From positions 753,713 through 817,712 of the forward strand of contig PLZJ01000002.1 of assembly GCA_003152105.1 (NCBI GenBank): 64,000 nt of DNA. Direction: 5' to 3'. The notes under the pieces are model-generated. The model saw only the letters and a program-made list of their open reading frames with translations. It made no database searches and was not told where the DNA came from. The DNA is from Candidatus Levyibacteriota bacterium. GTDB lineage: Bacteria > Patescibacteriota > Microgenomatia > Levybacterales > UBA12049. Both the position numbers and the translations under genes were made by a program. Below are positions 42,810-58,253 of the stretch, piece by piece. How positions within the stretch are numbered: position 1 is the first letter of the stretch; every line of letters starts with the position of its first letter.

Positions 42810-42818
42810 TGCTATTTA

Positions 42819-43676
42819 TTACGAAACAAATATATCTTTATTTGCTTGTCTTTTTCCGACAAGTTGCATCCAGTCTCTTGGAAATGATTCTAGTTTTCCT
42901 GCCTTTTTCAATTTAACAAACATTTCATGTGCCGATTCTCTTAATACTTTTCTCGCCACTTCAACTGGAACTCCCGGCAATGTTCCTCCTGCAAAATCAG
43001 CATAATCACAAATTGCATCTACGTCACCCTCGTTCATTTCCACAGCTACTGTTTCTGCTGCAACATCAGTAATTCCTTTTGCTCTTGCAATTCCTACATA
43101 CTCTTCTTGCGTATGTTTAAAATAATTAAGAGGCTTTCCAGGAGAGTATCCCAAAGCTTGTGCTTTTTGTTTACCTAGAACCGCAAGTTCTCCCCATACT
43201 CGTGCTCTATTTCTTGGTGTATTTATATATCCACAACTTATGACAATTACTCCATCAGGACGTAATACACGAGCTGTTTCTTCAAATGCTTCTTCCACAT
43301 CGGTTAAGTGAATACTATTTGCAAAAACGACTACATCAAATTTACCGTCTTCTGCTGGAATTTCTTCAGCTTTACCAACTGCGAATGTTACCTCAGGACG
43401 AAAAGCAAATTTACGCCTTGTTGAAGCAATTGCACTTTCATCTGGATCTACTTCAAGAATTGTCCCACCTGCCAATACTTTATCCTCCTCTAGCAAGAGT
43501 TCAGTCATTGCTCCTTTTCCAGATCCAAGATCTAGTATATGTAGCGCTTGAGGAGCAAGTTGAATAGTCTGTCGATTAATTTCTCTATAAAAACGACGTC
43601 TAGTAAATCGCTCATAAGTATGATCAAAATCAGTAGGAACAGGTGGTGGTGTTTGATGTGTTTGTTCTGGGCTCAT
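42819..43676 (-). CDS. class I SAM-dependent methyltransferase
   Basis: Motif I ILDLGSGKGAMTELL is followed by the post-I acidic ILEVD and motif II FDVVVFANSIH. Confidence 0.65.
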   Translation of the reverse strand: MSPEQTHQTPPPVPTDFDHTYERFTRRRFYREINRQTIQLAPQALHILDLGSGKGAMTELLLEEDKVLAGGTILEVDPDESAIASTRRKFAFRPEVTFAVGKAEEIPAEDGKFDVVVFANSIHLTDVEEAFEETARVLRPDGVIVISCGYINTPRNRARVWGELAVLGKQKAQALGYSPGKPLNYFKHTQEEYVGIARAKGITDVAAETVAVEMNEGDVDAICDYADFAGGTLPGVPVEVARKVLRESAHEMFVKLKKAGKLESFPRDWMQLVGKRQANKDIFVS

Positions 43677-43797
43677 AATTAATTTAGACTGATAATAGTA
43701 GCTTTATCAATGGAAGTCAACAACTATTCCTTGAAAGATCTTGCAAAATAAAATAAAAACTGCTATTGTCTCAAAAGATTAGATCAACTCAACAATA

Positions 43798-45324
43798 ATG
43801 AATAAATCTGCAGAATATCTTGAAGCAAGAGCAGAAACATTGGGTGCACATCTTCATAAAGAACCTTCAAGTGGCGTTTCGATTACTGGATATGCTGCAT
43901 TAACTCCACTTGGTGACACGCAGGAAACTTTTGAAGGAATGTTAAATGGGCAGTCAGGTGTGGTTGAATTTGATGCAAATAATTTTGCGGTAAATGTAGC
44001 AGCACCTGTAAAACATTTCGACCCACTAGAACATTTTGATAGACGCGCACTCCGAGGTGTATCGTACGTTACTGCAATGGCTGATGTATTAACACAAAGA
44101 GCTGCCTTAGATGCTGGACTTATTCAGAGCACAAATGAAATGTTGGGCGACGAATTACCAAGTGGACAGAAACAAGATAGACATAAAATAGGAAGCTCAA
44201 TTGGAAGTGGCATTGGTCCAACCCCTAATATATTACGTATTTATCAACAATTATATAAAGATGTTGAAGGATTGGAAAGTAAATTAAGGCAAACAATTAA
44301 TCCTGAAGAAAGAAGTGAATTAGAAGGTGAAATAAAAGCAAAAATTAGAAAAAACTCTGAAAGAGTAGGACCATTGTGGGGACTGGAAATGTTCCCTGAA
44401 GAAGTAAATTCAGATCCATCTATGAAACTTGGTTATTCTGGACCAGGTATTAGCGATACTGCAGCATGTGCGACTGGACTTTCAAATGCAGTCGAATCTG
44501 TTCGAAAAATAAAAGAAGGTGAAAGTGAAAAAGATTTTGGTGGAGGTGTAGAAGCTATCTTAACTGATCCAAATAATATTCATATTGGTGACATTGGAAT
44601 TGCGTCATTTGCAGCACTTCGCCTTGTGCTTTCTACAGAATATTTTAATATTTTAAAGAAAACAATAACTAGTCCTGAAGAATCTAGCCGGCCTTATGAT
44701 CGAAATAGAGATGGATTTGTTCTGGGCGAAGGTGGAGCAGTTGTTTTATTTGAAAGATCTGATTTAGCAGCAGCAAGAGGAGCAAACGTACATGCAGAAG
44801 TTGTCGGATACAGTAAATCACTGGATGGTAAAGGTCAAACAGATTTGGATGTTGATAATGTTGCAAGAACTATTCTTGAAGCGTGCGAAAACCGTTGGAC
44901 TTATGAAATAGAAGTTCCTGATGTTATATTTGCCCATGCAACAGCTACAAAATCTGGCGACAGAGCAGAGGCAAAAGCATTGTATAAAGCATTTGGAAAG
45001 TTACTGCAAGACATTCCCATTACTGCAAATAAAAGTAATATCGGTCATTTAGCTGGAGGAGCGGGAAGTGTAAATCTAGCAATGGCGATAGAAGCACTTC
45101 GCCAACAACAAATTCCTCATATTTTAAATTTAGTTAATCCTAGATTAAATTTAGAAAATCCGGAAGAAGAAGATGATGAAGAAATAAACCATGTCGTTTT
45201 TGTTAGAAATGAGCCGCTTAAAGGAAACTTTCAAAAAGCACTTATACTTGGGTATGGTTTCGGGGGAAATAATGCTGCAATGTTGATTAGAAGACCAAAG
45301 CTTCATAACTTACTAGTTTATTAG
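43798..45324 (+). CDS. beta-ketoacyl-ACP synthase I/II-like ketosynthase (FabF/FabB family) with insertions
   Basis: The N-terminus VSITGYAALTPLGDTQETFEGMLNGQSGV leads to the active-site Cys DTAACATGL, then HATATKSGD and NIGHLAGGAG, a CHH triad. At 508 aa it carries a charged insert and an acidic C-terminal stretch EEEDDEE. Confidence 0.7.
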   Translation: MNKSAEYLEARAETLGAHLHKEPSSGVSITGYAALTPLGDTQETFEGMLNGQSGVVEFDANNFAVNVAAPVKHFDPLEHFDRRALRGVSYVTAMADVLTQRAALDAGLIQSTNEMLGDELPSGQKQDRHKIGSSIGSGIGPTPNILRIYQQLYKDVEGLESKLRQTINPEERSELEGEIKAKIRKNSERVGPLWGLEMFPEEVNSDPSMKLGYSGPGISDTAACATGLSNAVESVRKIKEGESEKDFGGGVEAILTDPNNIHIGDIGIASFAALRLVLSTEYFNILKKTITSPEESSRPYDRNRDGFVLGEGGAVVLFERSDLAAARGANVHAEVVGYSKSLDGKGQTDLDVDNVARTILEACENRWTYEIEVPDVIFAHATATKSGDRAEAKALYKAFGKLLQDIPITANKSNIGHLAGGAGSVNLAMAIEALRQQQIPHILNLVNPRLNLENPEEEDDEEINHVVFVRNEPLKGNFQKALILGYGFGGNNAAMLIRRPKLHNLLVY

Positions 45325-46971
45325 CTTAGGAATAATTGATCGCTTTACTACAGTCGCTTGCAAATCTTTTATGCCTCCGATAATTGTTCCTTCAGAAGAA
45401 ATAACGATATTACTACCAAATGTGCGTTTATCTAATTGAACAGTTTCTGCGTCATAACAAATTCCATCTCCAGCTCTGACTGTATGATTATCAAAAAAAT
45501 CTGTTTCCCCAATTCTTAAAAATAATGGCATTACATTTGTATCAATTTTTTCAAGATGAACAATGCCAGCTGCTTGGGCAGCACCTTCTATCAACTGATC
45601 TTCAAGTAAAGCAACAACTTCATCATTAGTAACTTGCTTAACCTTTAATCCTTTAATGCTCGCAGTAATTTTATTGTCATGTTCTCGAATTATAGAAACA
45701 TTATATGTGCCATCATCACAGAGCTGCGGTTCAACCCGCAATACTGTTTTTCCATCAGCAGATACAATTTCTTTAAACTCAACTTCTCTAAAGCCTACTA
45801 ACTTAAGATTTCCATCTCCTAATCCTAAATGAGATGAAATTAAGCCAATTGTTTCAATTGCTGCTCTAATTTGTTTGTGTCCTGGAAGTATTTTTGGCAA
45901 TCCACTTTCTGGAGCAAAATGCCCTTCTGCTAATAACTGATCAACATGAACGACACCATAATATGCGCTAGGATCGCCTTCTTTTTGTTTTACCGTTGTC
46001 ACAAGTTGCTGATCATTTTCTCTTGTGACTTGATTTTTTGTTGCTATTGCTCTTCCAATTCCAGATTTTCTATCTTCATCTTGATTATTTCTTTCCATAG
46101 TTTGTACGTAAACCTGTTGTGTTCCATACCACTGCTCAAGCATTGTTTGCGCATCTTCGATATCATTAAAAAATTCAGTATAACCGCTTGGAACTGATGG
46201 ATTTTTTAATAAAGCGATAACTTTTTCTCCTACCTCTGATGTTGGTACAGTTCTTGGGAGTCCAAGTTTATCCGATATAACATTATGCATATCCTCCGCA
46301 GAATACTGACCATTTGACTCTCTTTTTGCTGCTATATTAAATACCATAACATTTGCAGTATCTGGTACGATTGGTGGCGTTACTTCTAAAAATCGTATAC
46401 CCCGCTCTGCCATTTCTGCTTGTCGCTTATGAAGTGATTGTAAATCTTCATATTTGTGTCTGGCAACATTGTCGTATTGTGAAACTATTGATATGGCACC
46501 TCTGAGTTGTGGGTCAAAATGACCTGGCACACTTTGCAATCTAATGATTACACCTCCGTCATTCATGATAGGCAAAAATTGAGTTACTAAATCATTTGAA
46601 GCGTCACTGTTTAGCGCTTGAGTTGATCCAGATGTTACAAGAACTACATAATCTACTTTACCATTAAGCTTTTCTGCTGCTTCTTGAAATAACTGCTTTC
46701 TCCCTTCAGAAGTCGACATATCAGCAGATAAACCATAAGCTGTACCATTATTTTCTGAAACATCATGCAGCACCGTATTTGCCCGCTTTTGCTTATCTCT
46801 AAATGAAAATGCTACCGTTACTTTTTCAGCTGCCAATGCTTTAACGATTGCAGCTCCAATATCTCGATTACCACCAGATACAAAAGCGGTCTTGTCAACT
46901 AAAGAAAGTTCACGATTTATCTGCCTGTCTTGTATTATTTGATCTAATGTTACTGCTTGTTCTGGACTCAT
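45313..46971 (-). CDS. fusion protein: N-terminal SDR with Y-x6-K (enoyl-reductase-like FabI/FabL spacing) + FabZ-like hot-dog dehydratase + extra C-terminal region
   Basis: The N-terminal Rossmann fold has AFVSGGNRDIGAAIVKALA and YDNVARHK (Tyr-x6-Lys). The middle has HFAPESGLPKILPGHKQIRAAIETIGLI, matching the FabZ GHFP...PG...EA.AQ pattern. Total length is 552 aa. Confidence 0.5.
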   Translation of the reverse strand: MSPEQAVTLDQIIQDRQINRELSLVDKTAFVSGGNRDIGAAIVKALAAEKVTVAFSFRDKQKRANTVLHDVSENNGTAYGLSADMSTSEGRKQLFQEAAEKLNGKVDYVVLVTSGSTQALNSDASNDLVTQFLPIMNDGGVIIRLQSVPGHFDPQLRGAISIVSQYDNVARHKYEDLQSLHKRQAEMAERGIRFLEVTPPIVPDTANVMVFNIAAKRESNGQYSAEDMHNVISDKLGLPRTVPTSEVGEKVIALLKNPSVPSGYTEFFNDIEDAQTMLEQWYGTQQVYVQTMERNNQDEDRKSGIGRAIATKNQVTRENDQQLVTTVKQKEGDPSAYYGVVHVDQLLAEGHFAPESGLPKILPGHKQIRAAIETIGLISSHLGLGDGNLKLVGFREVEFKEIVSADGKTVLRVEPQLCDDGTYNVSIIREHDNKITASIKGLKVKQVTNDEVVALLEDQLIEGAAQAAGIVHLEKIDTNVMPLFLRIGETDFFDNHTVRAGDGICYDAETVQLDKRTFGSNIVISSEGTIIGGIKDLQATVVKRSIIPKLIN

Positions 46972-46975
46972 ATTG

Positions 46976-47872
46976 CTATTTAATAAGCGTCATCGCTTGA
47001 ACAACTTCAGGTTCTCTATGCGTTACTAAATATACTATCGCTCTCGCTGCATCTTCTGGAGTAAGATCATCGGAAGAGTTAAGAGAATCTCTTAAAAATG
47101 TTCTTTGCTCATCAGTTAAATCAGCTGTCAATGGAGTATCTACTAATGCAGGTCTTAGTATGCTTGTATAAATATCTCGTTTTACGTTTAACTCCGATGC
47201 AGTTCCAATTGCTATCGCTTCCATGGCACTTTTTGAAGCACTATAATTTGTTTGTCCAGGCAACATTGCATGTTTTCCAATGCTGGAAACGTAAACAATG
47301 TCTCCTCCTTTTGGATCTCTATTTCTAACCATTTTTTTGACTGCTGCTCGAGTTACAAAAAAAGCACTATCGACATTTGTACGCATCACATCATACCATT
47401 GATTCGTTTTCATTGTTAATATAAGGTTATCTTGTTTTGTGCCAACATTATTTACAACAACATCAATTCGTCCAAAAACATCAACTACTCCATTTATTAA
47501 TGCCTCTGCTCCTTCTTCTGTAGTAACATCAGCCGGAATAAAAACAGCATCCGCTCCGTCTCCAATCGCTTTTATTTCTTGAGCAGATAATTCACCCACT
47601 TCTTGCCTTTGAGGTCTGCCATTAATTACTACTTTCATACCCATTTCACCAAATAGCCGTGCGGTAGCAAAACCAATTCCTTGCGTAGAACCAGAAATAA
47701 CAGCCACTTTTCCAGCTAGTTTTTCTCGATCAACTGGAGGAAGCATATCAGGAGAGATACTGTTACCAAGTACACTTGAGATATTTTCTGGCGCAAGACT
47801 TATATTTATTTTCTGCGTAAGTGCTACATTACTTTGATTAGAGGATGATTCACGATCTTGTTCTGAGGTCAT
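46976..47872 (-). CDS. SDR-family 3-oxoacyl-ACP reductase-like (FabG-like)
   Basis: It has KVAVISGSTQGIGFATARLF, NVG and YSASKSAMEA (classical Y-x3-K), with a roughly 50-aa N-terminal extension. TTGACT-17-TATCAT lies upstream at 47890-47930 on the minus strand. Confidence 0.7.
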   Translation of the reverse strand: MTSEQDRESSSNQSNVALTQKINISLAPENISSVLGNSISPDMLPPVDREKLAGKVAVISGSTQGIGFATARLFGEMGMKVVINGRPQRQEVGELSAQEIKAIGDGADAVFIPADVTTEEGAEALINGVVDVFGRIDVVVNNVGTKQDNLILTMKTNQWYDVMRTNVDSAFFVTRAAVKKMVRNRDPKGGDIVYVSSIGKHAMLPGQTNYSASKSAMEAIAIGTASELNVKRDIYTSILRPALVDTPLTADLTDEQRTFLRDSLNSSDDLTPEDAARAIVYLVTHREPEVVQAMTLIK

Positions 47873-47952
47873 ATATTAGTTTTGAAAATGATACTACTGA
47901 GTAATAGTTGAGTCAATATGTAGTTTTATAAAAAATTGACAAGCTATTTTCA

Positions 47953-50900
47953 ATGTGCAATAACTTATATATGAGCAAAATTGCTAATAACTCATTACGT
48001 GAAAATAGCTCACATTTAGTAAGAAACTATTGGGATAAATTTTTAAAACTACCGACAATAATTAAATACGCAGTAGTAATAATGGTTTTTATTCTACTTT
48101 CTATTCCAACTGGACTATTAACAAGACAAAGTTTATTTAATTTTGCTTCACAAACCCAAGGATTTCATGTCATTTCTAATACACTTTATTATAATGACAA
48201 GCCATTTAAAGCATGGGGATTTAATATGGTTGGTGCTTTAGGACAAGCAAATTGTGGAGATGGAACAAGTTCTGATCCAAATGGAAAAGTTGCTGCTCAA
48301 AATTTTAACAATAATGAACTCTCTTATATGGAAAAAAATTGGGGTGCTCCAACTATTATTAGAATTCAGGTCTCTCAACCGGCATTAAGCGGTAAATTAT
48401 CTTCTATTAGCTGGCAAAATTACGCAAGTCAGATAGAAAATGATATTAAATTAGCAGAAAACAATAAGGTCAATGGGATTATAATTGCCATGCAAAATGG
48501 ACAAAATGGCTGTGGAAATAGTGCATCTTATCCTTCGAATGATACAAATGTAGCATGGATGAATTTAATATCAAATACAACAATTAAATCAGATCCTCAG
48601 GTTCTTCTTGAACTATATAATCAGCCTCAAAATAACGGAAATAATAGTAATCAATGGCTCACTTGGAAATATGGGAATATGCGAAAAGGAAGTACTTGTC
48701 GAGCTTACTCTGGAAATATCTTTGGAATGGAATGCTTGGCAGAAAATATTAGAAATAGAGGAGTAAGCAACGTATTAATTGCAGATGGAGCAGACAAAGC
48801 ATCAAATTTCCTAGGAATTAGCCAAAAAGACACCAATACAAATTCTCCAAATTACAATCAAAACTATTTGTTGGACGACCAAAATACTGTTTACGGAATT
48901 GAACCATATGGGCAAGATATCAATTCAAATAATAACACATCGAAGATTATATGGGATGCGAATTTTGGTACGCTTTCTCAAACTAAACCTGTGTTAGTTA
49001 CTGAATGGAATATGACGTTACAAAGCTGTACTCGAAACGCCTTAACAACTCAAGAGGTACAAGCACTTGGGTATCCAACTCCAAATAGTAACCAAACATA
49101 TTACCAATATAATGGGGAAGATAATACATCACCATTTTTCTCATACTTAAGTGCTCACAATATCGGATTAATTGTTAATAGTTTTGACTCGTCAAATACA
49201 ACAATAAGAACTACAAATGCTTCTACTGGTAACTGGAATAATTGGTATCCAAGTAAATGTGAGATGGCAGTTGGAATTAACAATAACCTACCAAATAGCA
49301 GTGCAGGAAACATATTGCCTTCTGGACTTATATATAATATTGGCGTAGGATGGGATGTTTTGCAACAATTCCGACAGTGGGCAGTTTTAACAGACAGAGC
49401 ATTTTTACCTCATATTATTGCTGGCTATTGGCTAACAAATCCACAAGATATTAAAATAGCCGCGAAAGAAAAAGTACAATTTATTCATACGTATGGTGAC
49501 TTCAATAATTTACCAGGAAATGCTTATCCTATACTTAAATCAAATAATATGAAAGTTATTTCTTCAGATTTATTAACACCCCTTAATGATTATGGTTGTT
49601 GGCACTATAGAATGTATCATCCAACCTATAATTCATACATTGCATCATGTAAATCTATGCCAAACGGGTATGCTAATTTTCAAGCCAATGCTTACGGACT
49701 CCAAAGCGCAAATAATTTATTGCTAACAAGAATAAAAAATAAATTAATTGCAATTAGAAACAATACCAAATACGCTTCTTATTTATCTTATCTTTATGTA
49801 ATCGATGACTGGGGTAGCGGAGATTTTAAAAGTGCAAAGACACCTCTGAAAGAAATTAATGGCTTAATTCATACCATTATTCCAGGCGTACAAAGTATTT
49901 GCGGATTTTCGTTTGGGAGCGTACCATTTAAATCACACGCAGGAACAGTAAGTTATTTTGCTAATCCCTTAAATAATTATTCACCGGAAGGTTGTGATAA
50001 TGTCAGTGGATATGGATATGCGGTCAGATATAAAACAGATAGTGCCAAAAATTATGATTGGAAAATGCCAGGCATAATGGAAGCATGGCAAAAACAGTTA
50101 ATAGCAAACGGAATAAGTGATTATCCGAATTGGAATAAAATAGTAAATGTAATTGGTACGGGCCAGGTATTTGGAAGCTACACAGGTAGTTACGTTATTC
50201 CTTTATATGACACTGCAACCGCTAAAAAATTAAATGTACCAATTTATCAACCAATAATTGATCAGGAAACAGATTTTTGTAAGTTAGGAATGTCTTTATT
50301 TTTTTATGACTATCATGCTAGTGGAAGTTATTATACTCCTGCAAACAATACAAGTATTGATGAAGGAGTTAAACAATCTATAATACAATGTAATCAAATC
50401 TGGAACACGATTACTGTTGTCACCCCTACTTTTACTCCAACGCCAACGCTTACACCAACGCCAACGCTTACACCTACACCTACCCCAACCCTATCTCCAA
50501 CGCCTTCTCCAACGCCAACGCTTACACCTACACCCACTTTAACACCTACCTCTACGCCAACTCCACCTCCGGGATGTTTTTATAAACAACAAGAATGCAA
50601 TATTCACAAAGGTCAGGTTAGTTGCGGGCCAGAAATATTAATTTGTACAACTCCAACACCAATTACAGTTATAAATCCTGTACAAAACAAATTAATTAAT
50701 GGGTCATTTGATTTTGGTAATTTAACCGGCTGGACAACGTTTAATAAATCAGTGAATTCTAATACGGTTGCTATTGACCCATCAACATTCGTAAATGGCA
50801 ATTATTCTGTTAAAGCAACTATTAATCAGCCTGGAAAAAAAGAATGGTACTTTCAGTTAATGCAAGGTCCAGTACAGCTTAGCTTAAGCACAAACTATAT

Positions 50901-51162
50901 GATATCTTTTTATGCCAAGGCTTCTCAAAATAGGAGATTACAAGTATTTGTGCAAAACTCAAATCACATTCCATATTCAACGCAAAACTTTATATTGACA
51001 ACTACTTGGCAAAAATATTCATTTAATTATTTTCAACCTTCAACAGATGACAACGCAGCGCTAAAGTTTAATCTAGCTGATGCAGCAGGAAATATTTGGA
51101 TTGATAAAGTATCATTATCCCCGGTTCTGGTTAATATTGAGAATAAAGATACTTTACCGTAA
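47953..51162 (+). CDS. giant secreted/anchored CAZyme-like protein: N-terminal TM, glycoside-hydrolase-like domain, Pro/Thr linker, C-terminal CBM4/9-like domain
   Basis: [18 protein letters not shown] is present. ...LELYNQPQ... and LVTEWN are reminiscent of GH5-clan acid/base and nucleophile positions, but the assignment is weak. The PT linker reads [52 protein letters not shown]-terminal beta-sandwich has [14 protein letters not shown]...WYFQLMQ. The start may be the ATG at 47971, because 47953 lies in the spacer of TTGACA (47936). Confidence 0.55.
50424..50572 (+). repeat. tandem 6-9 nt coding repeats (ACNCCNACN..CTT) encoding a (T-P-T-L)n linker
   Basis: The degenerate repeat reads acgccaacgcttacaccaacgccaacgcttacacctacacc... 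Comparable PT tracts occur at about 52966-53020, 54780-54840 and 55188-55300. Confidence 0.6.
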
Positions 51163-51255
51163 CTGTTCACAAACTCAACTTATTTGATTATTTCTCTTGT
51201 AATTTGGTTGACATGCAAGATATTTTGATCTAGACTCAAAAAAGAAAGAATATAC

Positions 51256-52140
51256 ATGAATTATTTCTTTAAACATAAAATCCCTTTGTTTAAACAAAAA
51301 TTTTCATCATTAGATAAATTCCATAAGCTGAGCATAGGGATTGTATTATTGTTTATATTTGTAACCCCCTCGCTTGCACTTGTCACAAACTTATTCACTA
51401 ACGCCTCTTCCCTTGACTCATTCAGACTAGAGGCAGAACCAACTTCTACAAATAGTAATAGGTTATCTGGAAATGTTAGTGTGGTAACCGATACTAGTTC
51501 ATCTAACGGACAGGCTATACTATTTGGATCTAATGGAGTAAATGGTGCCAATGTTACTTTTAATCCATCAGTTATTCCCTTTTCTGCACCAGAGATAGGT
51601 AATCCATGGCACGGACAATATGAGTGGCAACAAGGACAACTGATCCCTTCACCATGGCCTGTTACAGATTCCTATCTTCGCTACGATACTGCGCCAACGG
51701 ATATAGGCTCTTGGGCTACTCTTGAACCAACACAGGGAAATTATGACTTCTCTTCAATTGATACAGCTTTGGCACAGGCAAAAGCAAATGGAGGCAAACT
51801 TGGAATAACAATTGCTGCTGCAAGAGGAGATATTACGGGTCAAGCATTTATACCAAATTATTTAATAAGTGATATGGCTGGAGATTCACAATCATACTGG
51901 AGTGGAGTTTCACCGGGAAATGGAGTATATGTGCCGGATTGGAATAATAGTTTTTTTATGACACGAGCGCAGGCTCTAATTAATGCGTTGGCTGCAAAAT
52001 ATGCAAATGACCCACGTCTTGGATGGATTGAAACCGGAATTTATGGAAATTATGCAGAGTGGATAAATGATGGTCTTCCAAATGGTCCAAGTGGTCAAAC
52101 ACCTGCTGTAATTACCGATGCAAATAAAAAAACATCATAG
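51256..52140 (+). CDS. N-terminal fragment of a frameshifted giant surface protein (TM anchor + DUF4874-like glycoside-hydrolase-like region)
   Basis: It has the TM IGIVLLFIFVTPSLALV. LRYDTAPTDIGSWATLEPTQGNYDFSSIDTALAQAKANGGKLGITIAAA is typical of the DUF4874 TIM-barrel family. It stops right after an A7 tract. Confidence 0.5.
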   Translation: MNYFFKHKIPLFKQKFSSLDKFHKLSIGIVLLFIFVTPSLALVTNLFTNASSLDSFRLEAEPTSTNSNRLSGNVSVVTDTSSSNGQAILFGSNGVNGANVTFNPSVIPFSAPEIGNPWHGQYEWQQGQLIPSPWPVTDSYLRYDTAPTDIGSWATLEPTQGNYDFSSIDTALAQAKANGGKLGITIAAARGDITGQAFIPNYLISDMAGDSQSYWSGVSPGNGVYVPDWNNSFFMTRAQALINALAAKYANDPRLGWIETGIYGNYAEWINDGLPNGPSGQTPAVITDANKKTS

Positions 52141-52223
52141 ATTGGTGGGTCAACTCTTTTCCTAAAACTAGAATCTTAGCAGTTATTGAAGAAGATGGAG
52201 ATCAATATGGATTTAAATATGCC

Positions 52224-55200
52224 ATGAGCTTAACTCCAAAACCTGGCTCTCCGGCTATTGGGTGGCGGTATAACAGTCTTGGGACCCTTGGACCAACTGC
52301 TAGTTATCTAACAGGACTTCAATATTGGGAAACACCACCACCAGCTGGTGCAGATGGAACAATACTATCGGAGCGATGGAAAACTGCTCCTGGTATAGTA
52401 GAATTTGGTGGTTTATCACCTTCTTCAACTACTGACTCACTTAATGATGCCTATACAGACGTGCTTCGTTACCACATTGATATGGTTGATGGAAGTTATT
52501 TTGATAACTGGAATAATTACTCAAGTGCTGAGCAGGCAACTTTGCAAAATATTATGGAACACTCGGGCTACAGAATTAGTCTTGATTCCCTAACACTGCC
52601 CTCAGTAGTCAGTCCAGGGAATAATTTTACAGTTTCTACTAATTGGTCTAATCTTGGTTCTACACCTGCATATAATCCATGGAATATCATGATTGAGCTT
52701 AAGGACTCATCTGGAAATGTTGCGTGGCAAGGAAAATCAAGTTTAGATTTTCAAACTCTACTTCCTACTAACTCAACAGGAACAGATATTCCAAATACTA
52801 CAACTGATACTTTCACAGTTCCTTCCAGTATTCCTTTGGGAACTTATTCTGTTTCTGTAAAAATAGTAGATCCAACAGGCTATTATAATCCAATGAATTT
52901 AGCAAATTCGGCAAAACAATCGGATGGAAGTTATTTACTTGGTCAAATTTCAGTTGGTAGCTTGGCTCCAACACCAACACTATCACCATCTGGAACTCCA
53001 ATAACTCCTACACCTATTACGAACTCGTCATTTCTTTGGCCAAATATACAAGGTAAAGTAGGAGCATTTTTTATAGGATTAAATAATAATTCAGATGTTG
53101 CACTAACTGCTGGGCAGGGTTTAAATCAAACTGTGCTTGATACAGTAAATCCAGGTAGTAGATTGGAAAATTTATATAATCAGTACAATTTTAAATACTA
53201 TGATTATTATGTCTGGAACCAAATCTACGGCAACTGTCAAACAAACCATGCAGCAGGATACGTTTGTCCATATTATCAAAACTCATCAAATCTACAGTCT
53301 GCATTAAGCGCAATTCAATCACATATTAATAGCAATAGTATTGCGACAGATAAAGCGGTAAGTGGATATGTCATTTTGGACGATTTTCCTGGAATTATTC
53401 CTCAAACATTCTTTGATCAAGTTGCAACTATGATACACAACGCCAATGCTGGATCAAATGGTATGACAAAATCAGCGATTTCCAGACCAACCATATGTGA
53501 CTTCGGAGGGTGGTTGGATTATAAGACAAGTGTAAACGGAGCTTGGAACCATAATGATAACGATATTACAAAACAATCTACAAATTTCTATCCTGCTGAT
53601 TGTGACATGGTCGAGCTTTATCCAGAATGCTACAACGAACCAGCAAATTATTCACATGGGGATTGGTGTGATTGGACAATGCAGGACACTACAGGAGGAA
53701 ATACGCCAAAAATAACTAGAGAATATAACATATTACAAAGTAAAGGTTGGGATATTACTAAAGAACCATTAATTGCCAATGCTCAGTCATATGGCTATAC
53801 CGCCGCCTACCAATCGGGAAGCGGAGTATATATTATTCCTCCTACAGGAATAGAGGAAAGTACTTTAATAAAGTCATATTGTGATACTGGAGCAACTTCT
53901 GTAAATGATTTTGCCTGGGATGATCCTGCTCATGCCTCAAATATTAAATCTGAACTTGCTAACGATTCAGGCATGTATAGCGGATTTTTGAGTGGTGTAA
54001 ATTACTGCAAATCTAAGTGGGGAATAGCTATGGGCCCTTCCTCATCCAAAATAGCAAATGTAAATTCATCATTTAATTTAATATCAATGCTTGGTAAGCT
54101 TGTGCAACATTTTACTTCTATGTTCAGTGCACACGCGCAAACCCTAACACCAACCACAATTCATTTGATTTCAGGTTACTCCGGCACCAATACTGGGGGT
54201 AACACAATTGTTTTTGGACCTCCAAGTGGATACTCAGCAGATGATGTAATGATTGCGCAAATTACAACCCAAGGAACACCAGGAATAACACCTCCTGATA
54301 GTAGTTGGAACGGTATTAAACGTACAAACACAGCTTCAAACTCTTTGGTTCAAGAATTATATTATCATGTAGTAAAAGCTAGTGAACCATCGACCTATAC
54401 ATTTACCTTCACATCCCCAGAACAAGCTTCTGGAGGAGTTGCTGATTATAGTGGAGTTAATACTTCAAATCCAGTAGATCAGGTTAATCAAGGATCAGCT
54501 CTTAACTCTAGTAATATTTCAGCCGCAAGCATAAATGTTAATGCAACCGGAGAAAGACTTATGTTTTTTGGAGGATCACTTTCGAATACATCCTTTACAC
54601 TTCCAACTGGCATGTCACAAGTATGGCAAAAAGAAAATACTGCCATTTCATCTAATTTAGCGGACTTATATACCAATGCTGGCTCAACTGGGGTTATAAA
54701 TGAAAGCAGTGCAGTTTCAGCAGATAATGTTGCACAAGATTTATTACTTCAACCAGCAGGTTCAACTTTTACAAATCCCACGCCAACTTCTACTCTTTCA
54801 ATATCTCCTACCCCAGTCTCAGCTTCACCTACACCCAGTTGTTCTCCTTTACCTAGTGGAAAAGGTACAGATGTTATTACCTTTACAGTACCAACAGGCA
54901 CTAACTCTTATAACGTCTGGTTTAGAATGAAAGTACCAACTTCTGGCGACTCAATTTATTCACAACTTACGGACAATTCCGGCAATGCATTTGGATGTCC
55001 ATCACAAATTATTGATAATAATACAGTAGATGGAAACTGGCACTGGATTCCTCAAGGTCAAAATTCCTTAACCCAGGGACAAACTTACACATTTACTTTG
55101 ACTGGAAATCAAGATGGAGTTAAAGTTGATGAAATAATATTGTCTCAAACATGTGGACCAACAGGAGTAGGCGATAACTGTCTAGCTGCTCCTACACCAA

Positions 55201-55385
55201 CACCTACCTTAACACCTATTCCTTCACCTACAGCTGTTCCAAGCCCAATTACAACATCTACTCCTACGCCTGTCAGACCTACTCCAACATCTACACCTCT
55301 AAGTTGCAAAAAACTTTCTATTAATTGCTATTATACAAATTTAAGTACCTGTTCTTATGTTTGCGGAGACACAAAACATAAGTAG
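52224..55385 (+). CDS. C-terminal part of the same surface protein (DUF4832-like + PT linkers + C-terminal CBM-like domain)
   Basis: The frame is open from 52128 (coding-like NIIDWWVNSFPKTRILAVIEEDGDQYGFKYA) upstream of the first ATG. It has PAIGWRYNSLG...W.TAPG and then multiple PT linkers. The C-terminus has NWHWIPQGQ..TYTFTLTGNQDGVKVDEIIL, a lectin/CBM-like sandwich. Confidence 0.55.
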   Translation: MSLTPKPGSPAIGWRYNSLGTLGPTASYLTGLQYWETPPPAGADGTILSERWKTAPGIVEFGGLSPSSTTDSLNDAYTDVLRYHIDMVDGSYFDNWNNYSSAEQATLQNIMEHSGYRISLDSLTLPSVVSPGNNFTVSTNWSNLGSTPAYNPWNIMIELKDSSGNVAWQGKSSLDFQTLLPTNSTGTDIPNTTTDTFTVPSSIPLGTYSVSVKIVDPTGYYNPMNLANSAKQSDGSYLLGQISVGSLAPTPTLSPSGTPITPTPITNSSFLWPNIQGKVGAFFIGLNNNSDVALTAGQGLNQTVLDTVNPGSRLENLYNQYNFKYYDYYVWNQIYGNCQTNHAAGYVCPYYQNSSNLQSALSAIQSHINSNSIATDKAVSGYVILDDFPGIIPQTFFDQVATMIHNANAGSNGMTKSAISRPTICDFGGWLDYKTSVNGAWNHNDNDITKQSTNFYPADCDMVELYPECYNEPANYSHGDWCDWTMQDTTGGNTPKITREYNILQSKGWDITKEPLIANAQSYGYTAAYQSGSGVYIIPPTGIEESTLIKSYCDTGATSVNDFAWDDPAHASNIKSELANDSGMYSGFLSGVNYCKSKWGIAMGPSSSKIANVNSSFNLISMLGKLVQHFTSMFSAHAQTLTPTTIHLISGYSGTNTGGNTIVFGPPSGYSADDVMIAQITTQGTPGITPPDSSWNGIKRTNTASNSLVQELYYHVVKASEPSTYTFTFTSPEQASGGVADYSGVNTSNPVDQVNQGSALNSSNISAASINVNATGERLMFFGGSLSNTSFTLPTGMSQVWQKENTAISSNLADLYTNAGSTGVINESSAVSADNVAQDLLLQPAGSTFTNPTPTSTLSISPTPVSASPTPSCSPLPSGKGTDVITFTVPTGTNSYNVWFRMKVPTSGDSIYSQLTDNSGNAFGCPSQIIDNNTVDGNWHWIPQGQNSLTQGQTYTFTLTGNQDGVKVDEIILSQTCGPTGVGDNCLAAPTPTPTLTPIPSPTAVPSPITTSTPTPVRPTPTSTPLSCKKLSINCYYTNLSTCSYVCGDTKHK

Positions 55386-55539
55386 ATTAATAGAGTGAGT
55401 AATAAAACAGGATAAACATAATTATATTTATAGTGAGCCAACCGCACTTTCTATCAAATCATTCCTGGAATTCATAACTAAATTTTTGGACATATATCAA
55501 GTAAGAAGCAATTAATTTAAAATAGAATTTACCTTCTAA

Positions 55540-55812
55540 CTATTTTAGATTATCCAATATCCACATTCTAGCAAGAGTTGTTGGTCCTATTCCTTGTTTA
55601 AATGCTTTATTTCTAATCTCTTGTAAATGTTTTGGCTGAATTCGAATTGTAATTGTGCTTGTTTTATTTGCTTGATGAAATCCAACAAGAGTACCGTCAT
55701 TAATCTCATCAACCGCAGAATGAGTATCCCAAAAGTTAGCTTCTTCCTCGTATGTTTTAAATGGTTTTAGTGGAATAAATTGATGTTCTTTTACTATTTT
55801 AACTTTTGTCAT
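55540..55812 (-). CDS. brnA: BrnA-type antitoxin (CopG/RHH-like)
   Basis: It reads MTKVKIVKEHQFIPLKPFKTYEEEANFWDTHSAVDE...TSTITIRIQPKHLQEIRNKAFKQGIGPTTLARMWILDNL. The FWDTH...RI...G.pyQtL layout is BrnA-like. I set the start at the internal Met because the longer ORF would overlap the toxin gene by 120 nt. Confidence 0.6.
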   Translation of the reverse strand: MTKVKIVKEHQFIPLKPFKTYEEEANFWDTHSAVDEINDGTLVGFHQANKTSTITIRIQPKHLQEIRNKAFKQGIGPTTLARMWILDNLK

Positions 55813-56020
55813 TATCTTCACCTCCTTCAAGAGTATATTCGTTATAAAAACTTTTTTCTTCTTTTCTGGATGGTCTTGCAGTAATAAGACCATACGTGTT
55901 TTTGCTTTTTCGGTGCCCAATTACGATACTTAAATATCTTTTGCTTTTTGTACGACCGATTAAAATCCAGCGATCAAATTTACCTTGAATAAAAACATAA
56001 TCATGGGATATAATCTCCAA
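55799..56020 (-). CDS. brnT: BrnT-type toxin (DUF497), N-terminally disrupted
   Basis: The C-terminus LSIVIGHRKSKNTYGLITARPSRKEEKSFY matches BrnT ...RIISARKATKKE...Y. The reading frame upstream reads ..VEEDR*EHIAKHNISLNEVLEI.., which is BrnT-like (..EWD..KA..N..KHGVSFEEA) but is interrupted by TAA at 56060-56062. No ATG is present, and the track starts at TTG. Confidence 0.5.
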   Translation of the reverse strand: MEIISHDYVFIQGKFDRWILIGRTKSKRYLSIVIGHRKSKNTYGLITARPSRKEEKSFYNEYTLEGGEDNDKS

Positions 56021-56120
56021 AACCTCATTTAAACTAATATTATGTTTCGCAATATGTTCTTATCTATCTTCTTCAACTATTAAAGTATCAATTACAATGT
56101 CTTTAATCACTTTAAATAGT

Positions 56121-56137
56121 GTAAGACATTGTCTTAC
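56121..56137 (-). promoter_or_regulatory. perfect 17-bp palindrome (candidate BrnA operator) overlapping the predicted brnTA promoter
   Basis: The palindrome is GTAAGACA-t-TGTCTTAC. On the minus strand, TTGACA-17 nt-TACACT sits with the palindrome covering the spacer and -10. Confidence 0.35.
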
Positions 56138-56378
56138 TTTTGTCAATATCGTAAAAATTACTTGCCCAAATTTTTATGATACAGGTTTAAAGGATAAAAT
56201 AGATTATCCTATTCTAGGGAAAAGTTTATAAGGCTATTCGTGATTGCGAGAACAACACTGTTCCCTTCGGTGAACAATTCGTCTGGTGGATGGAACACCT
56301 TCTTCGAGTATATCATAATTTAATAAATACAGGAGCAATTTATGACAATTATATAAATTAATTTGTTATACTCAAATT

Positions 56379-58253
56379 ATGGATGATTCATTAATATCTG
56401 AAGAAAATAAACCAGTTGATTATTTAATTGAAGGCGAGGGTCAAAATGCAACGATTTCTAGTCCTGAAAGAGTAATAAATGATATACCTGAAGCAGCTGT
56501 AGAAAAAGCAAAATCAAGTAGAGAACTAGTTGAGACAAAACTTCGCCCACAAGATATTCAAGATCAAGCGGGTTTTAGTCGAAGAATATATTCTTTTATT
56601 ACTTTAACTGGAAAAGAAACTAAATTTTCTCTTAGAGGAAGATACGAATTACCAGAAACTGATAGTTCATTTAAAGATATAGGTACAAAACCTCTTGATG
56701 ATGTATTTGTTGGTAATGAGTTCCAAAGTTATAAATCATCACATCGTAGTGAAGCTGAAAGAATTCAAACTACAAAAGATTTCGAAGGCTTCATTGCACT
56801 TTCTGACCAGTTAATTCCTGATAATCCAAGAGTTGAGCAGGCAAAACAAGACATACAAAATGGTGTATATAGCGATGATACCATTACATTTATTAATGAG
56901 CTGGTAGCTACTAGCATAATAGATGACAAAGGTTTAGTTAACAGTGAAATCAATGCTGATGCAGAAGCCTTAATGATACTAGCTTTAAGTGGTAACGCAG
57001 AAGCTCAACGTTTAGTTCAAAGTAAGTCAGAAGCACTTCTTAGAATGGATGATGAGAAAAAACAAAGGGCAATAACAGAAGGAAAATTAAGAGTAGAAGG
57101 AGAATTGAAAGATGTTCCAGATGCGGATATGTCAAGACATTCTCTGGTTCATATTTACGAAGGTCCAGTTGAAAGAGACGAGCATGGAAATGTTATTTTA
57201 AGATCAACTGCATACAGACCAAAAGCCGCCCCATTTGGTCAAGTAATCTTAAGAGACACTATACATACTTCAATAGATGGACCTGTCGGAGAACATGATT
57301 TAGGTAGCTGGGATGATATTGATACTGTAGTAGTTGCTAAAGCAAAAAACAATATTGATAAGGCAGATACAATTAGGCCAGAAGATACCTACTTTCATAT
57401 ATATCCACATCAGGCATTAACCCTTGAAGAAGCAACGGGTATTGTTCCAGGAGAAGTGCCTGAAGATGCGATTATATCAAAGCTGCCTGATGGTAAAACA
57501 ATACTATATAGACGAAATGGATTTACTGTCAGACATTTACAAGAGTATTTGAAATTAAACCCAGAAGCACCTCATGCTCTTACTTCCATTTTAAATAATG
57601 AAACATTTGTTGATTTAGGAAGCATAACAGAAACCGTAAACGCTCTTACGCAATCTTTAAATGAAGACGATGCTTCTTTAAGAGCTGAACCTGCATTAAC
57701 TAAAGGATTAATCAATGTTTATTCAAAAGCTGGAGTAGAAAGATTACAATCGAAATCTAAGAATCCTAGTGACTCCGAATTCCCCACGCTAAGTCGTGAA
57801 GAAATTGCTAAAAGAATAGCTCATTTAATTATTGGAAGGCTGCCTACAGAAATAAGAAATACTGCTGTCAAAGAAGCTATTAGGGATCAAGGCAGCGAAA
57901 TGCATACTATTATGGCTCATGGATGGCAAAACGAACATGATATTGAGATAATTAAATATGCTCTAGAAAGAGGTATAAGTACTGGCGAACACATAAATAC
58001 AATTGCTAGTGAAACTACTGATAAAATCGCTGATGCTTTTGAGTCTGCTGGCACAGAAGGAGGAATTGATAATAATTACATGCCATCATGGGGAGATGCA
58101 ACAGACGATGAAACAAAGGTTGTAGATGTAGTAAAATATGGATACAATTGGAAAAAATATTCATATTCACCTACTCCTAAAGAGATACTTGAATTAGCTC
58201 CACAAACTAGAGCAGATATCTACGATTCCGGAGTATTAACAGCTAGGATATAG
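56379..58253 (+). CDS. orphan acidic hypothetical protein (624 aa, no TM, no recognised domain)
   Basis: It is a long clean ORF rich in D and E. It lies between the BrnTA module and tRNA-Lys(CTT). Confidence 0.5.
   Translation: MDDSLISEENKPVDYLIEGEGQNATISSPERVINDIPEAAVEKAKSSRELVETKLRPQDIQDQAGFSRRIYSFITLTGKETKFSLRGRYELPETDSSFKDIGTKPLDDVFVGNEFQSYKSSHRSEAERIQTTKDFEGFIALSDQLIPDNPRVEQAKQDIQNGVYSDDTITFINELVATSIIDDKGLVNSEINADAEALMILALSGNAEAQRLVQSKSEALLRMDDEKKQRAITEGKLRVEGELKDVPDADMSRHSLVHIYEGPVERDEHGNVILRSTAYRPKAAPFGQVILRDTIHTSIDGPVGEHDLGSWDDIDTVVVAKAKNNIDKADTIRPEDTYFHIYPHQALTLEEATGIVPGEVPEDAIISKLPDGKTILYRRNGFTVRHLQEYLKLNPEAPHALTSILNNETFVDLGSITETVNALTQSLNEDDASLRAEPALTKGLINVYSKAGVERLQSKSKNPSDSEFPTLSREEIAKRIAHLIIGRLPTEIRNTAVKEAIRDQGSEMHTIMAHGWQNEHDIEIIKYALERGISTGEHINTIASETTDKIADAFESAGTEGGIDNNYMPSWGDATDDETKVVDVVKYGYNWKKYSYSPTPKEILELAPQTRADIYDSGVLTARI

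Follow-up and report, generated by a model that had tools for sequence, protein, structure and literature searches.

A probable recently decayed BrnT-type toxin-antitoxin operon with an intact, predicted ribbon-helix-helix antitoxin in a Levyibacteriota genome

The closest described counterpart of the locus analyzed here is the BrnT/BrnA system of Brucella abortus, in which the toxin gene comes first and is followed by the gene of a ribbon-helix-helix (RHH)-type antitoxin. The catalytic residues of BrnT, as listed in PMC5086665, are Asp6, Glu7, Lys9, Arg41 and Glu78, and the BrnT-BrnA complex acts as a repressor at its own promoter, to which it binds (Heaton et al. 2012, as summarised in PMC5086665). 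The BrnT fold (PDB 3U97) is taken here as a four-stranded antiparallel sheet packed on two short helices, with a RelE-like topology. Two further groups are relevant for comparison. RHH repressors such as CopG, Arc/Mnt and MazE7 act on palindromic operators placed over promoters, while orphan antitoxins and degraded chromosomal type II toxin-antitoxin (TA) loci have been surveyed in Klebsiella (PMC7192599) and reviewed more generally (PMC7354431). The chromosomal CcdA of Erwinia is cited in these two papers as an example of an anti-addiction module.

The locus lies in a 64-kb window (the whole stretch of 64,000 nucleotides that was analyzed) of a Candidatus Levyibacteriota contig. The host chromosome has a low GC content, and the genome is roughly 1.15 Mb in size. 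As in Brucella, the toxin gene is the first and the antitoxin gene the second, both on the minus strand, and the two overlap by 14 nt, an arrangement conserved in relatives. The coordinates of all features are collected in Table 1. In our judgement the locus is quite probably a recently decayed type II TA operon of the BrnT (DUF497 RNase)/RHH antitoxin kind, of which an autoregulated orphan antitoxin remains.

Table 1. Features of the toxin-antitoxin locus (positions refer to the window).
Feature	Position	Strand	Basis or remark
-35-like hexamer TTGACA	56141..56146	-	pattern scan and conservation
Putative operator, palindrome GTAAGACA-A-TGTCTTAC	56121..56137	-	between -35 and -10, overlapping the first three bases of -10
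-10-like hexamer TACACT (family consensus TACAAT)	56118..56123	-	pattern scan and conservation
BrnT/DUF497-type toxin pseudogene, 103 codons	55799..56110	-	homology to intact relatives and profile link to 3U97
Predicted toxin start GTG	56110-56108	-	7 nt after the -10 hexamer; aligns where relatives have ATG
Premature stop TAA, codon 17	56060..56062	-	GAA (Glu) in closest intact relatives; one G>T change at 56062
73-aa TTG-initiated ORF, annotated in the source genome (P0005)	55799..56020	-	C-terminal toxin remnant, probably not a real product
Natural toxin stop TAA	55801-55799	-	
Shine-Dalgarno sequence GGAGG of the antitoxin	55821..55825	-	inside the invariant Gly-Gly codons of the toxin, 8 nt before the antitoxin ATG
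Intact antitoxin, 90 aa, CopG_antitoxin family, predicted C-terminal RHH (about residues 52-85)	55540..55812	-	PF12441 and full-length alignment

The membership of the toxin in the BrnT family was examined with a 103-aa protein reconstructed across the interruption. This protein aligned end to end (100% coverage, 72% identity) with two intact homologues, P0001 and P0002; intact copies, which the preliminary description had proposed to look for in related genomes, therefore exist. The 81 homologues found are all 100-124 aa long except for the 73-aa P0005, and the intact relatives (100-117 aa) come from Patescibacteria-type metagenomes and share a conserved N-terminus. The alignment against BrnT profiles suggested earlier also gave a positive result, since Pfam BrnT_toxin (PF04365) matched the window toxin with an E value of 6.4e-7 over profile positions 6-77 of 77, spanning the stop codon, at a score of 30 bits, which lies below the gathering cut-off of 34.5. 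The same profile was matched by all 26 of the 26 members of the toxin clade (best E 2.3e-8). An NCBIfam search of the toxin returned nothing, and the clade profile alone, searched against PDB sequences, gave no direct match to 3U97 or to any other BrnT, which is why the link to BrnT was drawn through an intermediate, broader DUF497 profile. The clade profile aligned with this broader profile at an hhalign probability of 99.9% (E 2e-35); 39 of the 40 members of the broader set match PF04365 (best E 1.6e-12), and the broader profile in turn aligned with Brucella BrnT 3U97 (E 5.8e-8) in register with W5-D6-E7-K9, R41 and E78. Through this chain of profiles the toxin is homologous to the Brucella protein, from which it differs in belonging to a divergent, Patescibacteria-type clade.

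The equivalents of all the BrnT catalytic residues (E13, E14, D15/R16, R47 and E85) are encoded in the reconstructed ORF. The stop codon separates those of Asp6, Glu7 and Lys9 from those of Arg41 and Glu78, and the complete catalytic set would have stood in a single polypeptide in the ancestral gene but does not in the present one. An AlphaFold2 model of the intact relative P0001 was poor (pLDDT 59), and at this low confidence its element order, beta-alpha-alpha-beta-beta-beta-(beta)-alpha, is compatible with the BrnT fold. The top two Foldseek matches of the model in the PDB were 7vd7_A and 3u97, both weak (E 0.2, TM 0.39-0.51); because the predicted structure is poor, this search is suggestive only. 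The better of the two (TM about 0.5), chain A of the Salmonella Typhimurium toxin-antitoxin complex 7VD7, was also matched weakly (E 0.057) by the broader DUF497 profile. Literature searches on 7VD7, and on DUF497 in combination with CopG, found nothing useful. A BrnT(DUF497)-type identity of the toxin is supported by these sequence comparisons, and the clade is an uncharacterised, Patescibacteria-centred branch of the BrnT family.

The preliminary description had reported that the BrnT-type frame stays open upstream of the annotated TTG start, runs into an in-frame TAA and offers no ATG, and all three observations were confirmed. Upstream of the TTG the frame reads EHIAKHNISLNEV. Beyond the TAA, 16 further in-frame codons, VIKDIVIDTLIVEEDR, lead up to a GTG and match the N-termini of intact relatives; since homology continues upstream of it, the TAA is an internal nonsense codon. 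The alignment places the native toxin start at this GTG and the lesion at codon 17, as a single nonsense substitution (GAA to TAA) in a complete gene. The earlier view that the toxin is either N-terminally truncated and inactivated or uses an odd start can accordingly be kept with regard to the interruption and the near-certain inactivity, but not with regard to the truncation or the odd start. In the stop column of the alignment, 14 of 24 relatives have Glu, the closest ones included, and L012 and L013 carry GAA at this position. By inspection, all 14 invariant residues of a 45-sequence family alignment are still encoded in the window toxin, as are 19 of the 24 near-invariant ones, the other five being conservative replacements. 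Judged from this state of preservation, the decay of the toxin appears recent. The interrupted toxin is almost certainly inactive, a further difference from Brucella BrnT.

The antitoxin ORF was found to be intact, as described earlier. It matched CopG_antitoxin (PF12441) with 33.2 bits (cut-off 28), residues 17-85 aligning with profile positions 5-76 of 79, and precomputed annotation places the partners of P0001 and P0002 in the same family. BrnA_antitoxin (PF14384) gave no match at E<=1, the only profiles to do so being PF12441 and, weakly, a NikA-like one. The former label "BrnA (RHH/CopG-like)" is thus supported in naming an RHH antitoxin and wrong in naming the BrnA family, and in this the antitoxin differs from that of Brucella. 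The only NCBIfam match, CotZ_rel at E 0.027, is at chance level and not meaningful, and the antitoxin, searched singly, matched no PDB sequence. When a profile of 32 antitoxins was compared with the PDB, the best matches were the RHH domains of NikA, MazE7 and CopG, in register over residues 48-83 at marginal E values of 0.06-1.1. The protein aligns over its full length with its relatives and has all of their invariant residues. Its C-terminal half resembles the known RHH repressors; it differs from them in that the predicted RHH domain follows an N-terminal region with the pattern FK(T/S)xEEEAxFWDTHS, and its DNA binding is putative. The GGAGGN hexamer that contains the antitoxin Shine-Dalgarno sequence encodes Gly-Gly of the toxin in 36 of 41 distinct relatives, and its spacing to the ATG is the same in most of them; the ribosome-binding site thereby constrains the Gly-Gly codons of the toxin. 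Separately, a candidate RNA hairpin in the YGLITARP codons (55870-55893) was rejected as a functional element, as relatives retain it inconsistently and the codons of the peptide largely dictate it.

The region upstream of the toxin had been described as a perfect palindrome lying in a promoter. The palindrome, GTAAGACA-N-TGTCTTAC, is present as a single copy in the window, and so are the two hexamers, with a spacer of 17 nt. The perfect form is, however, one variant only: the family consensus is imperfect, with one mismatch, at a central G/A pair, in 28 of 47 distinct sequences. The window has 12 perfect palindromes (arms of at least 8 bp, loops of at most 3 nt) versus 10.3 +/- 3.9 in simulations, and promoter-like sites in the region number 4 versus 6.9 expected; as neither exceeds chance on its own, the significance of both comes only from conservation in relatives. 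This conservation is strong. The family consensus TGTAAGACAWTGTaTTACA, with 1.3-2.0 bits per position, precedes the toxin in about 50 distinct related loci, and the whole element of ~30 nt, TTGAca-N3-TGTAAGACAWTGTaTTACAAT, is found in about 50 loci, including those of high-GC hosts, and its conservation ends sharply at the -35 T and the -10 T. The operator motif has the form GTAAGACAWTGTNTTACAAT, and dyad symmetry holds in 84% of cells. The TTG of the -35 hexamer reaches 0.9-1.6 bits versus about 0.2 bits immediately upstream, while the terminal T of the -10 hexamer, beyond the edge of the palindrome, reaches 1.5 bits; TACACT occurs in L016 and L047 as well. The start codon lies exactly 7 nt after the hexamer in seven of the eight sequences of the window's own clade. 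In about 17 relatives the predicted ATG is only -2 to +4 nt from TACAAT, which makes this hexamer hard to reconcile with a -10 box there; in L003 and L007, for example, the ATG directly adjoins TACAAT. The conserved element fits a sigma-70 promoter with an embedded, putative operator. The position of the dyad across the -35/-10 spacer recalls the operators of RHH repressors, and it agrees with the earlier expectation of an autoregulatory site and with the self-repression known for Brucella BrnTA.

The working of the locus may be pictured as follows. A sigma-70-type promoter (TTGACA, 17 nt, TACACT) would drive a two-gene transcript of the minus strand, whose toxin cistron is probably leaderless or nearly so, because the GTG start comes so soon after the -10 hexamer. 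Translation of the toxin would stop after 16 residues, yielding no active RNase, the loss of activity being judged from homology. The antitoxin should still be translated, because it has its own GGAGG inside the Gly-Gly codons of the toxin. Its C-terminal RHH dimer most likely acts as a repressor of its own promoter by binding to the palindrome, as suggested by the family-wide conservation of the element and by Brucella BrnTA. Three counterpoints to this decay model may be noted: polarity from the premature stop could lower antitoxin expression, initiation at GTG may work poorly on a leaderless mRNA, and the TAA may be read through at a low level.

Decay of the toxin is not confined to the window. 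In nine distinct related loci of uncultured bacteria the toxin is frameshifted, stopped or deleted, while every readable antitoxin frame is free of damage and the operator has been retained where it was detected. In two of these loci (L081 and L083) the toxin has suffered large deletions; both still have the operator and an antitoxin that is either intact or free of damage up to the end of the contig. Such loci resemble the orphan antitoxins of Klebsiella and Erwinia in that an antitoxin has no working toxin in its original TA context, and the same explanations come into question, namely remnant, cross-neutralisation, anti-addiction and regulator. They differ in family and host group, and the window differs further in that decay has taken only its first step, one nonsense codon, with nine further independent cases in the family.

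The most serious alternative to simple decay is that selection keeps the orphan antitoxin and its operator, as anti-addiction immunity against BrnT-like toxins brought in by mobile elements, or to neutralise or regulate another toxin. We regard this as possible but unlikely. In its favour, the nine relatives lost toxin function by different lesions and retained the antitoxin. Other bacteria commonly carry orphan antitoxins, for which an anti-addiction role has been proposed (PMC7192599, PMC7354431). For pairs of antitoxins that involve orphan loci, dN/dS is 0.06-0.16, and the closely related L009 (frameshifted toxin) and L008 (intact toxin) differ in the antitoxin by 4 non-synonymous and 10 synonymous changes. 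The cassette is found in many genomic contexts and in hosts of various GC contents, which suggests horizontal movement. Against this, nearly all pairs have saturated dS values (about 1-2 or undefined), so that selection before and after toxin loss is inseparable and the dN/dS values are uninformative on the latter. Moreover, toxin-first decay is expected even without a new function, because a cell does not survive if the antitoxin is lost first. No further close paralogue of the toxin was found on the 1.15-Mb contig, P0005 being its sole representative among the 81 homologues, and the 64-kb window holds no second copy of toxin or antitoxin. No marks of mobile elements were seen among the flanking genes, which are surface or glycan-related. 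An extension of the same idea, more speculative still, is that promoter-operator and RHH antitoxin form a self-contained unit, repeatedly kept by selection in Patescibacteria after toxin loss for immunity against related toxins on elements exchanged among ultra-small bacteria; in it, the toxin would normally be made from a leaderless mRNA, and the toxin-to-antitoxin ratio would be set by leaderless versus strong Shine-Dalgarno initiation.

It is improbable that the system is still active through low-frequency readthrough or suppression of the TAA or through reinitiation to a working product. Apart from the stop, the ORF has no damage and all family-invariant residues are present, the allele does not vary between four sequencing runs, and low expression is enough for toxins. 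However, TAA ends 25 of the 43 long ORFs in the window and is the main genuine stop codon there, there is no suppressor among the five tRNAs in the window, and no recoding signal was seen. Relatives carry plainly destructive lesions of the same gene, and simple decay is for this reason the economical reading.

The possibility that the palindrome acts as an RNA or DNA hairpin, a plus-strand terminator or a 5'-UTR stem, instead of a protein-binding operator is very unlikely. Read on the plus strand it does look like a terminator, a stem followed by TTTTGT, but no plus-strand gene ends upstream of it, and in relatives its place is always ahead of the toxin gene, flanked by the conserved -35 and -10 hexamers. 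Its sequence is conserved more than its pairing, given the frequent central mismatch, and the arms covary weakly (a score at least as high in 20 of 500 shuffles), which favours neither a hairpin nor a strict dyad requirement. Rfam gave no credible match in 55300-56500, and the 229-nt upstream intergenic region showed no unusual folding (z-scores -0.9 and -1.7).

There is even less reason to regard the 73-aa protein initiated at the TTG as a natural, functional short form of the toxin. The ORF is called in the source genome and a GAGG lies just upstream of its start, but at a distance of 2 nt, and a Shine-Dalgarno-like GAGG so close to the start codon would probably not allow efficient initiation. 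The check for natural short forms proposed earlier showed that no relative starts at the equivalent of "LEIISHD". The product would lack residues 1-30, and with them the nearly invariant E13, R16, H19, K22 and H23 and the equivalents of Asp6, Glu7 and Lys9. Finally, although the sequence seems to come from a metagenome and one wrong base would suffice, an assembly or sequencing artefact can hardly be credited, as ~1 kb around the stop (861-1001 nt aligned) is identical in an ENA scaffold and in four Logan assemblies, each made independently from one run (SRR7151522, SRR7151497, SRR7151530 and SRR7151495); the premature stop is real.

Taken as decay, the module is an ordinary decaying type II pair in which the stop codon in the toxin arose from one base change, and TA decay commonly passes through an orphan antitoxin. 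The locus does not challenge the present picture of type II TA systems. The annotation of the source genome should be corrected, as what is listed as a 73-aa "gene" forms the tail end of a toxin pseudogene; the module would be better recorded as a BrnT-type pseudogene with an intact CopG-type antitoxin. For this branch of the toxin family the analysis provides a clean promoter-operator footprint, TTGACA-N3-TGTAAGACAWTGTATTACAAT, and, counting the window, ten natural cases of toxin-first decay. These comparative data may help in planning binding assays or in studying TA turnover in unculturable organisms.

The 103-codon toxin frame was rebuilt with its stop codon masked and then used in searches. 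It matched the Pfam profile BrnT_toxin (PF04365) over profile positions 6-77 of 77, crossing the stop, with an E-value of 6.4e-7 and a score of 30 bits, which is below the 34.5-bit gathering cut-off. A search of ~5.8 billion proteins identified 81 toxin homologues, the best showing 72% identity over 100% of the query. The preliminary description had considered that relatives might naturally begin at LEIISHD; instead, the homologues are 100-124 aa long with a conserved N-terminus, the sole exception (73 aa) being the ORF annotated in the window genome itself, on its 1.15-Mb contig. In the protein alignment, relatives start M-[VT]-K-D where the window has V(GTG)-I-K-D. The GTG start is confined to the window within its own clade, and is also used by more distant relatives. 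The column of the stop holds Glu in 14 of 24 relatives, the closest ones included, and the codon here is GAA in L012 and L013, the nearest two intact loci, so a single G>T change at 56062 accounts for the TAA. The interruption noted earlier was confirmed: the TAA is in frame and the profile match spans it. The proposed N-terminal truncation or odd start overlooked the homology that reaches beyond the TAA on its upstream side: a single nonsense codon interrupts an otherwise complete toxin gene. All coordinates proved correct when the minus strand was re-read. No close toxin paralogue was found in the window or, by the 81-homologue search, on the same 1.15-Mb contig.

Features of the toxin-antitoxin locus (window numbering) and of related loci (L handles)
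Feature	Position or loci	Strand	Remark
-35-like hexamer TTGACA	56146-56141	-	sequence reading
Palindrome GTAAGACA-A-TGTCTTAC	56137-56121	-	inside 17-nt spacer after TTGACA
-10-like hexamer TACACT	56123-56118	-	after 17-nt spacer
Toxin-frame GTG	56110	-	7 nt beyond TACACT
VIKDIVIDTLIVEEDR	from GTG 56110 up to TAA	-	open toxin frame
Premature TAA	56062-56060	-	in toxin frame, after VIKDIVIDTLIVEEDR
EHIAKHNISLNEV	between TAA 56062-56060 and TTG 56020	-	toxin frame
TTG	56020	-	annotated start; frame runs on to TAA 55801-55799
GGAGG before antitoxin ATG	55825-55821	-	8 nt from ATG, in toxin's Gly-Gly codons
Antitoxin ORF, 90 aa	ATG 55812 to TAG 55542-55540	-	14-nt overlap with toxin frame
ATG abutting/overlapping -10-like hexamer	L003, L005, L042		TACAATATGGAT
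ATG abutting/overlapping -10-like hexamer	L007, L010, L057, L061, L066		TACAATGGAT
Frameshifted toxin	L009/L074, L071/L072, L073
Stop in toxin	L069, L070
In-frame toxin deletion	L010, L066		conserved residues taken out
Large N-terminal toxin deletion	L081, L083		operator fused to toxin tail

The premature stop is genuine: four independent per-run Logan assemblies and one ENA scaffold contain the TAA-bearing sequence with 100% identity over 861-1001 aligned nt. Recoding of TAA is unlikely, since TAA ends more of the window's long ORFs than any other stop codon (25 of 43) and, read with the standard code, the window is filled with such ORFs. By inspection of a 45-sequence family alignment, the window toxin retains all 14 invariant residues and 19 of the 24 near-invariant ones, the remaining five being conservative replacements, which implies that the toxin was probably inactivated very recently relative to the divergence of the family.

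No NCBIfam model matched the toxin, and the profile of its own clade gave no direct match to Brucella BrnT. When 1.84 billion representatives were searched exhaustively by profile, 435 toxin relatives emerged at E<=1e-3. Forty of the more distant ones carry the classic motif LIWDxxNxxHIA(R/K)H, and 39 of these match PF04365 (best E 1.6e-12). The clade profile aligned with this 40-member set with an hhalign probability of 99.9% (E 2e-35), and the profile of the set matched the Brucella abortus BrnT structure 3U97 with an E-value of 5.8e-8. For a poor AlphaFold2 model (pLDDT 59) of the intact relative P0001, the two top PDB fold matches were TA toxins, 7vd7_A (Salmonella Typhimurium) and 3u97, both at E 0.2. 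The initial BrnT assignment is therefore upheld by the sub-threshold Pfam match together with the profile chain to 3U97, and it is concluded that the toxin belongs to the BrnT/DUF497 family, in a divergent branch centred on Patescibacteria.

The BrnT residues reported as important for RNase activity are Asp6, Glu7, Lys9, Arg41 and Glu78 (PMC5086665). When the two alignments were chained (clade profile to distant set to 3U97), BrnT W5/D6/E7/K9/R41/E78 corresponded to V12/E13/E14/(D15 or R16)/R47/E85 of the window toxin. The stop at codon 17 splits the equivalents of Asp6, Glu7 and Lys9 from those of Arg41 and Glu78, so on this mapping the complete predicted active site cannot be present in the 16-residue peptide or in the annotated 73-aa product.

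The antitoxin had been named BrnA; its role stands but the family does not, as the product matched CopG_antitoxin (PF12441) with 33.2 bits, above the cut-off of 28, and did not match BrnA_antitoxin (PF14384) at E<=1. The best PDB matches of a profile of 32 antitoxins, with residues 48-83 in register, were the ribbon-helix-helix domains of NikA, MazE7 and CopG, and were marginal (E 0.06-1.1). The gene is indeed intact: the 90-aa ORF aligns over its full length with the partners of related toxins and keeps every invariant residue. In 36 of 41 distinct relatives the invariant Gly-Gly near the toxin C-terminus is encoded by GGAGGN, located 7-8 nt ahead of the antitoxin ATG, with equal spacing in most. 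The conservation of this GGAGG indicates a separate ribosome-binding site for the antitoxin, which should still be translated in spite of the stop in the toxin, although polarity from that stop may reduce its expression. Because the Gly-Gly codons coincide with the antitoxin Shine-Dalgarno sequence, the same bases would serve two functions, and it appears to be partly this sequence that keeps the glycines invariant.

On their own, the palindrome and promoter features are not significant: the window contains 12 perfect palindromes with 8-bp arms versus 10.3 +/- 3.9 by chance, and promoter-like hexamer pairs are no commoner than in shuffles. The proposed promoter-operator, which gains no significance from the window sequence, is nevertheless strongly conserved in relatives. 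Among 80 related loci taken from genome and metagenome collections, using only the protein as anchor, ~50 distinct ones have TTGAca-N3-TGTAAGACAWTGTaTTACAAT directly before the toxin gene. Within the element, information content reaches 1.3-2.0 bits, versus ~0.2 bits immediately outside; the conserved block extends from the TTG of the -35 hexamer to the final T of the -10 hexamer, and is AT-rich even where the host is high-GC. Dyad symmetry was observed in 84% of position pairs overall, with a G/A mismatch as the central pair in 28 of 47 sequences and weak covariation between the arms. The sequence is thus conserved more than the pairing, which favours a putative protein-binding site over an RNA hairpin. 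The palindrome described as perfect is so in the window, but this is a minority variant (11 of 47 sequences have G-C as the central pair). Compared with the consensus, the window has A instead of T ahead of the left arm, C instead of A within the right arm, and TACACT instead of TACAAT; all three variants are also seen among relatives whose toxins are intact.

Within the window's clade, 7 of 8 sequences place the start codon exactly 7 nt past the -10 hexamer, a spacing compatible with a toxin mRNA that would be leaderless or have a 1-nt leader. In ~17 relatives the predicted, conserved ATGGAT start is found at -2 to +4 nt from TACAAT, so near that transcription from a standard sigma-70 promoter would begin past the start codon and miss the ATG. 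Either the toxins or transcription must start elsewhere in these relatives, possible causes being non-canonical starts, another transcription start or unusual promoter architecture; this tempers the promoter model, leaving the window's clade unaffected. A second dyad is present between operator and toxin start in three loci (L008:1036-1047, L009:2430-2441 and L047:1178-1189), as the perfect 12-nt palindrome CTACAATTGTAG in the first two and as CTACAGTTGTAG, with one mismatch, in L047. This second dyad could represent a further operator or the duplication of a half-site.

Damaged toxins were found in nine distinct related loci. In L081 (161-330) and L083 (1183-1300) a deletion joins the operator directly to the last 35-45 toxin codons, so that in these two loci the same decay has reached an older stage. 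As far as the contigs run, none of the loci showed a lesion in the antitoxin: the antitoxin is full and intact in six of the nine cases, L081 included, is cut by the contig end in L071/L072 and L083 (undamaged over q1-55 in the latter), and the L070 sequence is without the downstream part. Losing the antitoxin first is lethal, and therefore toxin-only damage is expected; the asymmetry alone is no evidence of a new function. Saturation of synonymous sites prevented the detection of purifying selection following toxin loss; the only close pair, L009 and L008, has 4 non-synonymous versus 10 synonymous antitoxin differences, too few to interpret.

The relatives come mostly from MAGs of Microgenomates-type Patescibacteria (Levy-, Davies- and Curtissbacteria). 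The same cassette and operator occur in two contigs labelled as 'uncultured Gammaproteobacteria' MAGs (L006, CAZRWL010000010.1; L007, CAYLXC010000011.1), reflecting either horizontal transfer or mis-binned contigs. Genes neighbouring the window locus encode large surface or glycan-related proteins (DUF4832, CBM_4_9, Glyco_hydro_42-like, DUF2079), and no mobile-element marks were found among them. The GC content of the window is ~32%; positions 42000-56000, which code for very large secreted/glycan-related proteins (CBM_4_9, Glyco_hydro_42-like, DUF4832), reach 0.36-0.38, versus 0.30-0.33 elsewhere. Between the TA promoter and a divergent 624-aa gene of unknown family lies a 229-nt intergenic region (56150-56378) that includes a GC-richer patch (roughly 56230-56330) and, at 56375-56348 (-), another promoter-like site, TTGAGT-16-TATAAT; this region had no Rfam match and its folding was unremarkable. 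An 8-9 bp hairpin in the YGLITARP codons (55870-55893), flagged as terminator-like on the plus strand, is perfect in ~10 relatives, absent from many, and lacks covariation at wobble positions. The G-L-V/I-T-A-R-P codons are inherently self-complementary, and the hairpin is probably a by-product; a weak Rfam 'Histone3' match (55847-55896, E 0.06) is the same hairpin.

Brucella BrnTA, a complex of 2:2 stoichiometry, is a repressor of its own promoter (PMC5086665). The window locus works like a BrnT-type type II TA operon and descends from one, but, unlike BrnTA, it has a CopG-type antitoxin and has only just begun to decay, standing at the first step. Well-studied bacteria contain many degraded TA loci and orphan antitoxins, for which roles as remnants, cross-neutralisers or anti-addiction modules have been put forward (PMC7192599, PMC7354431). 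The observation itself holds and, once corrected, its original interpretation is mostly right. As a decayed TA locus it is biologically ordinary; the conserved promoter-operator and the constraint of a Shine-Dalgarno sequence within toxin codons are its modest by-products.
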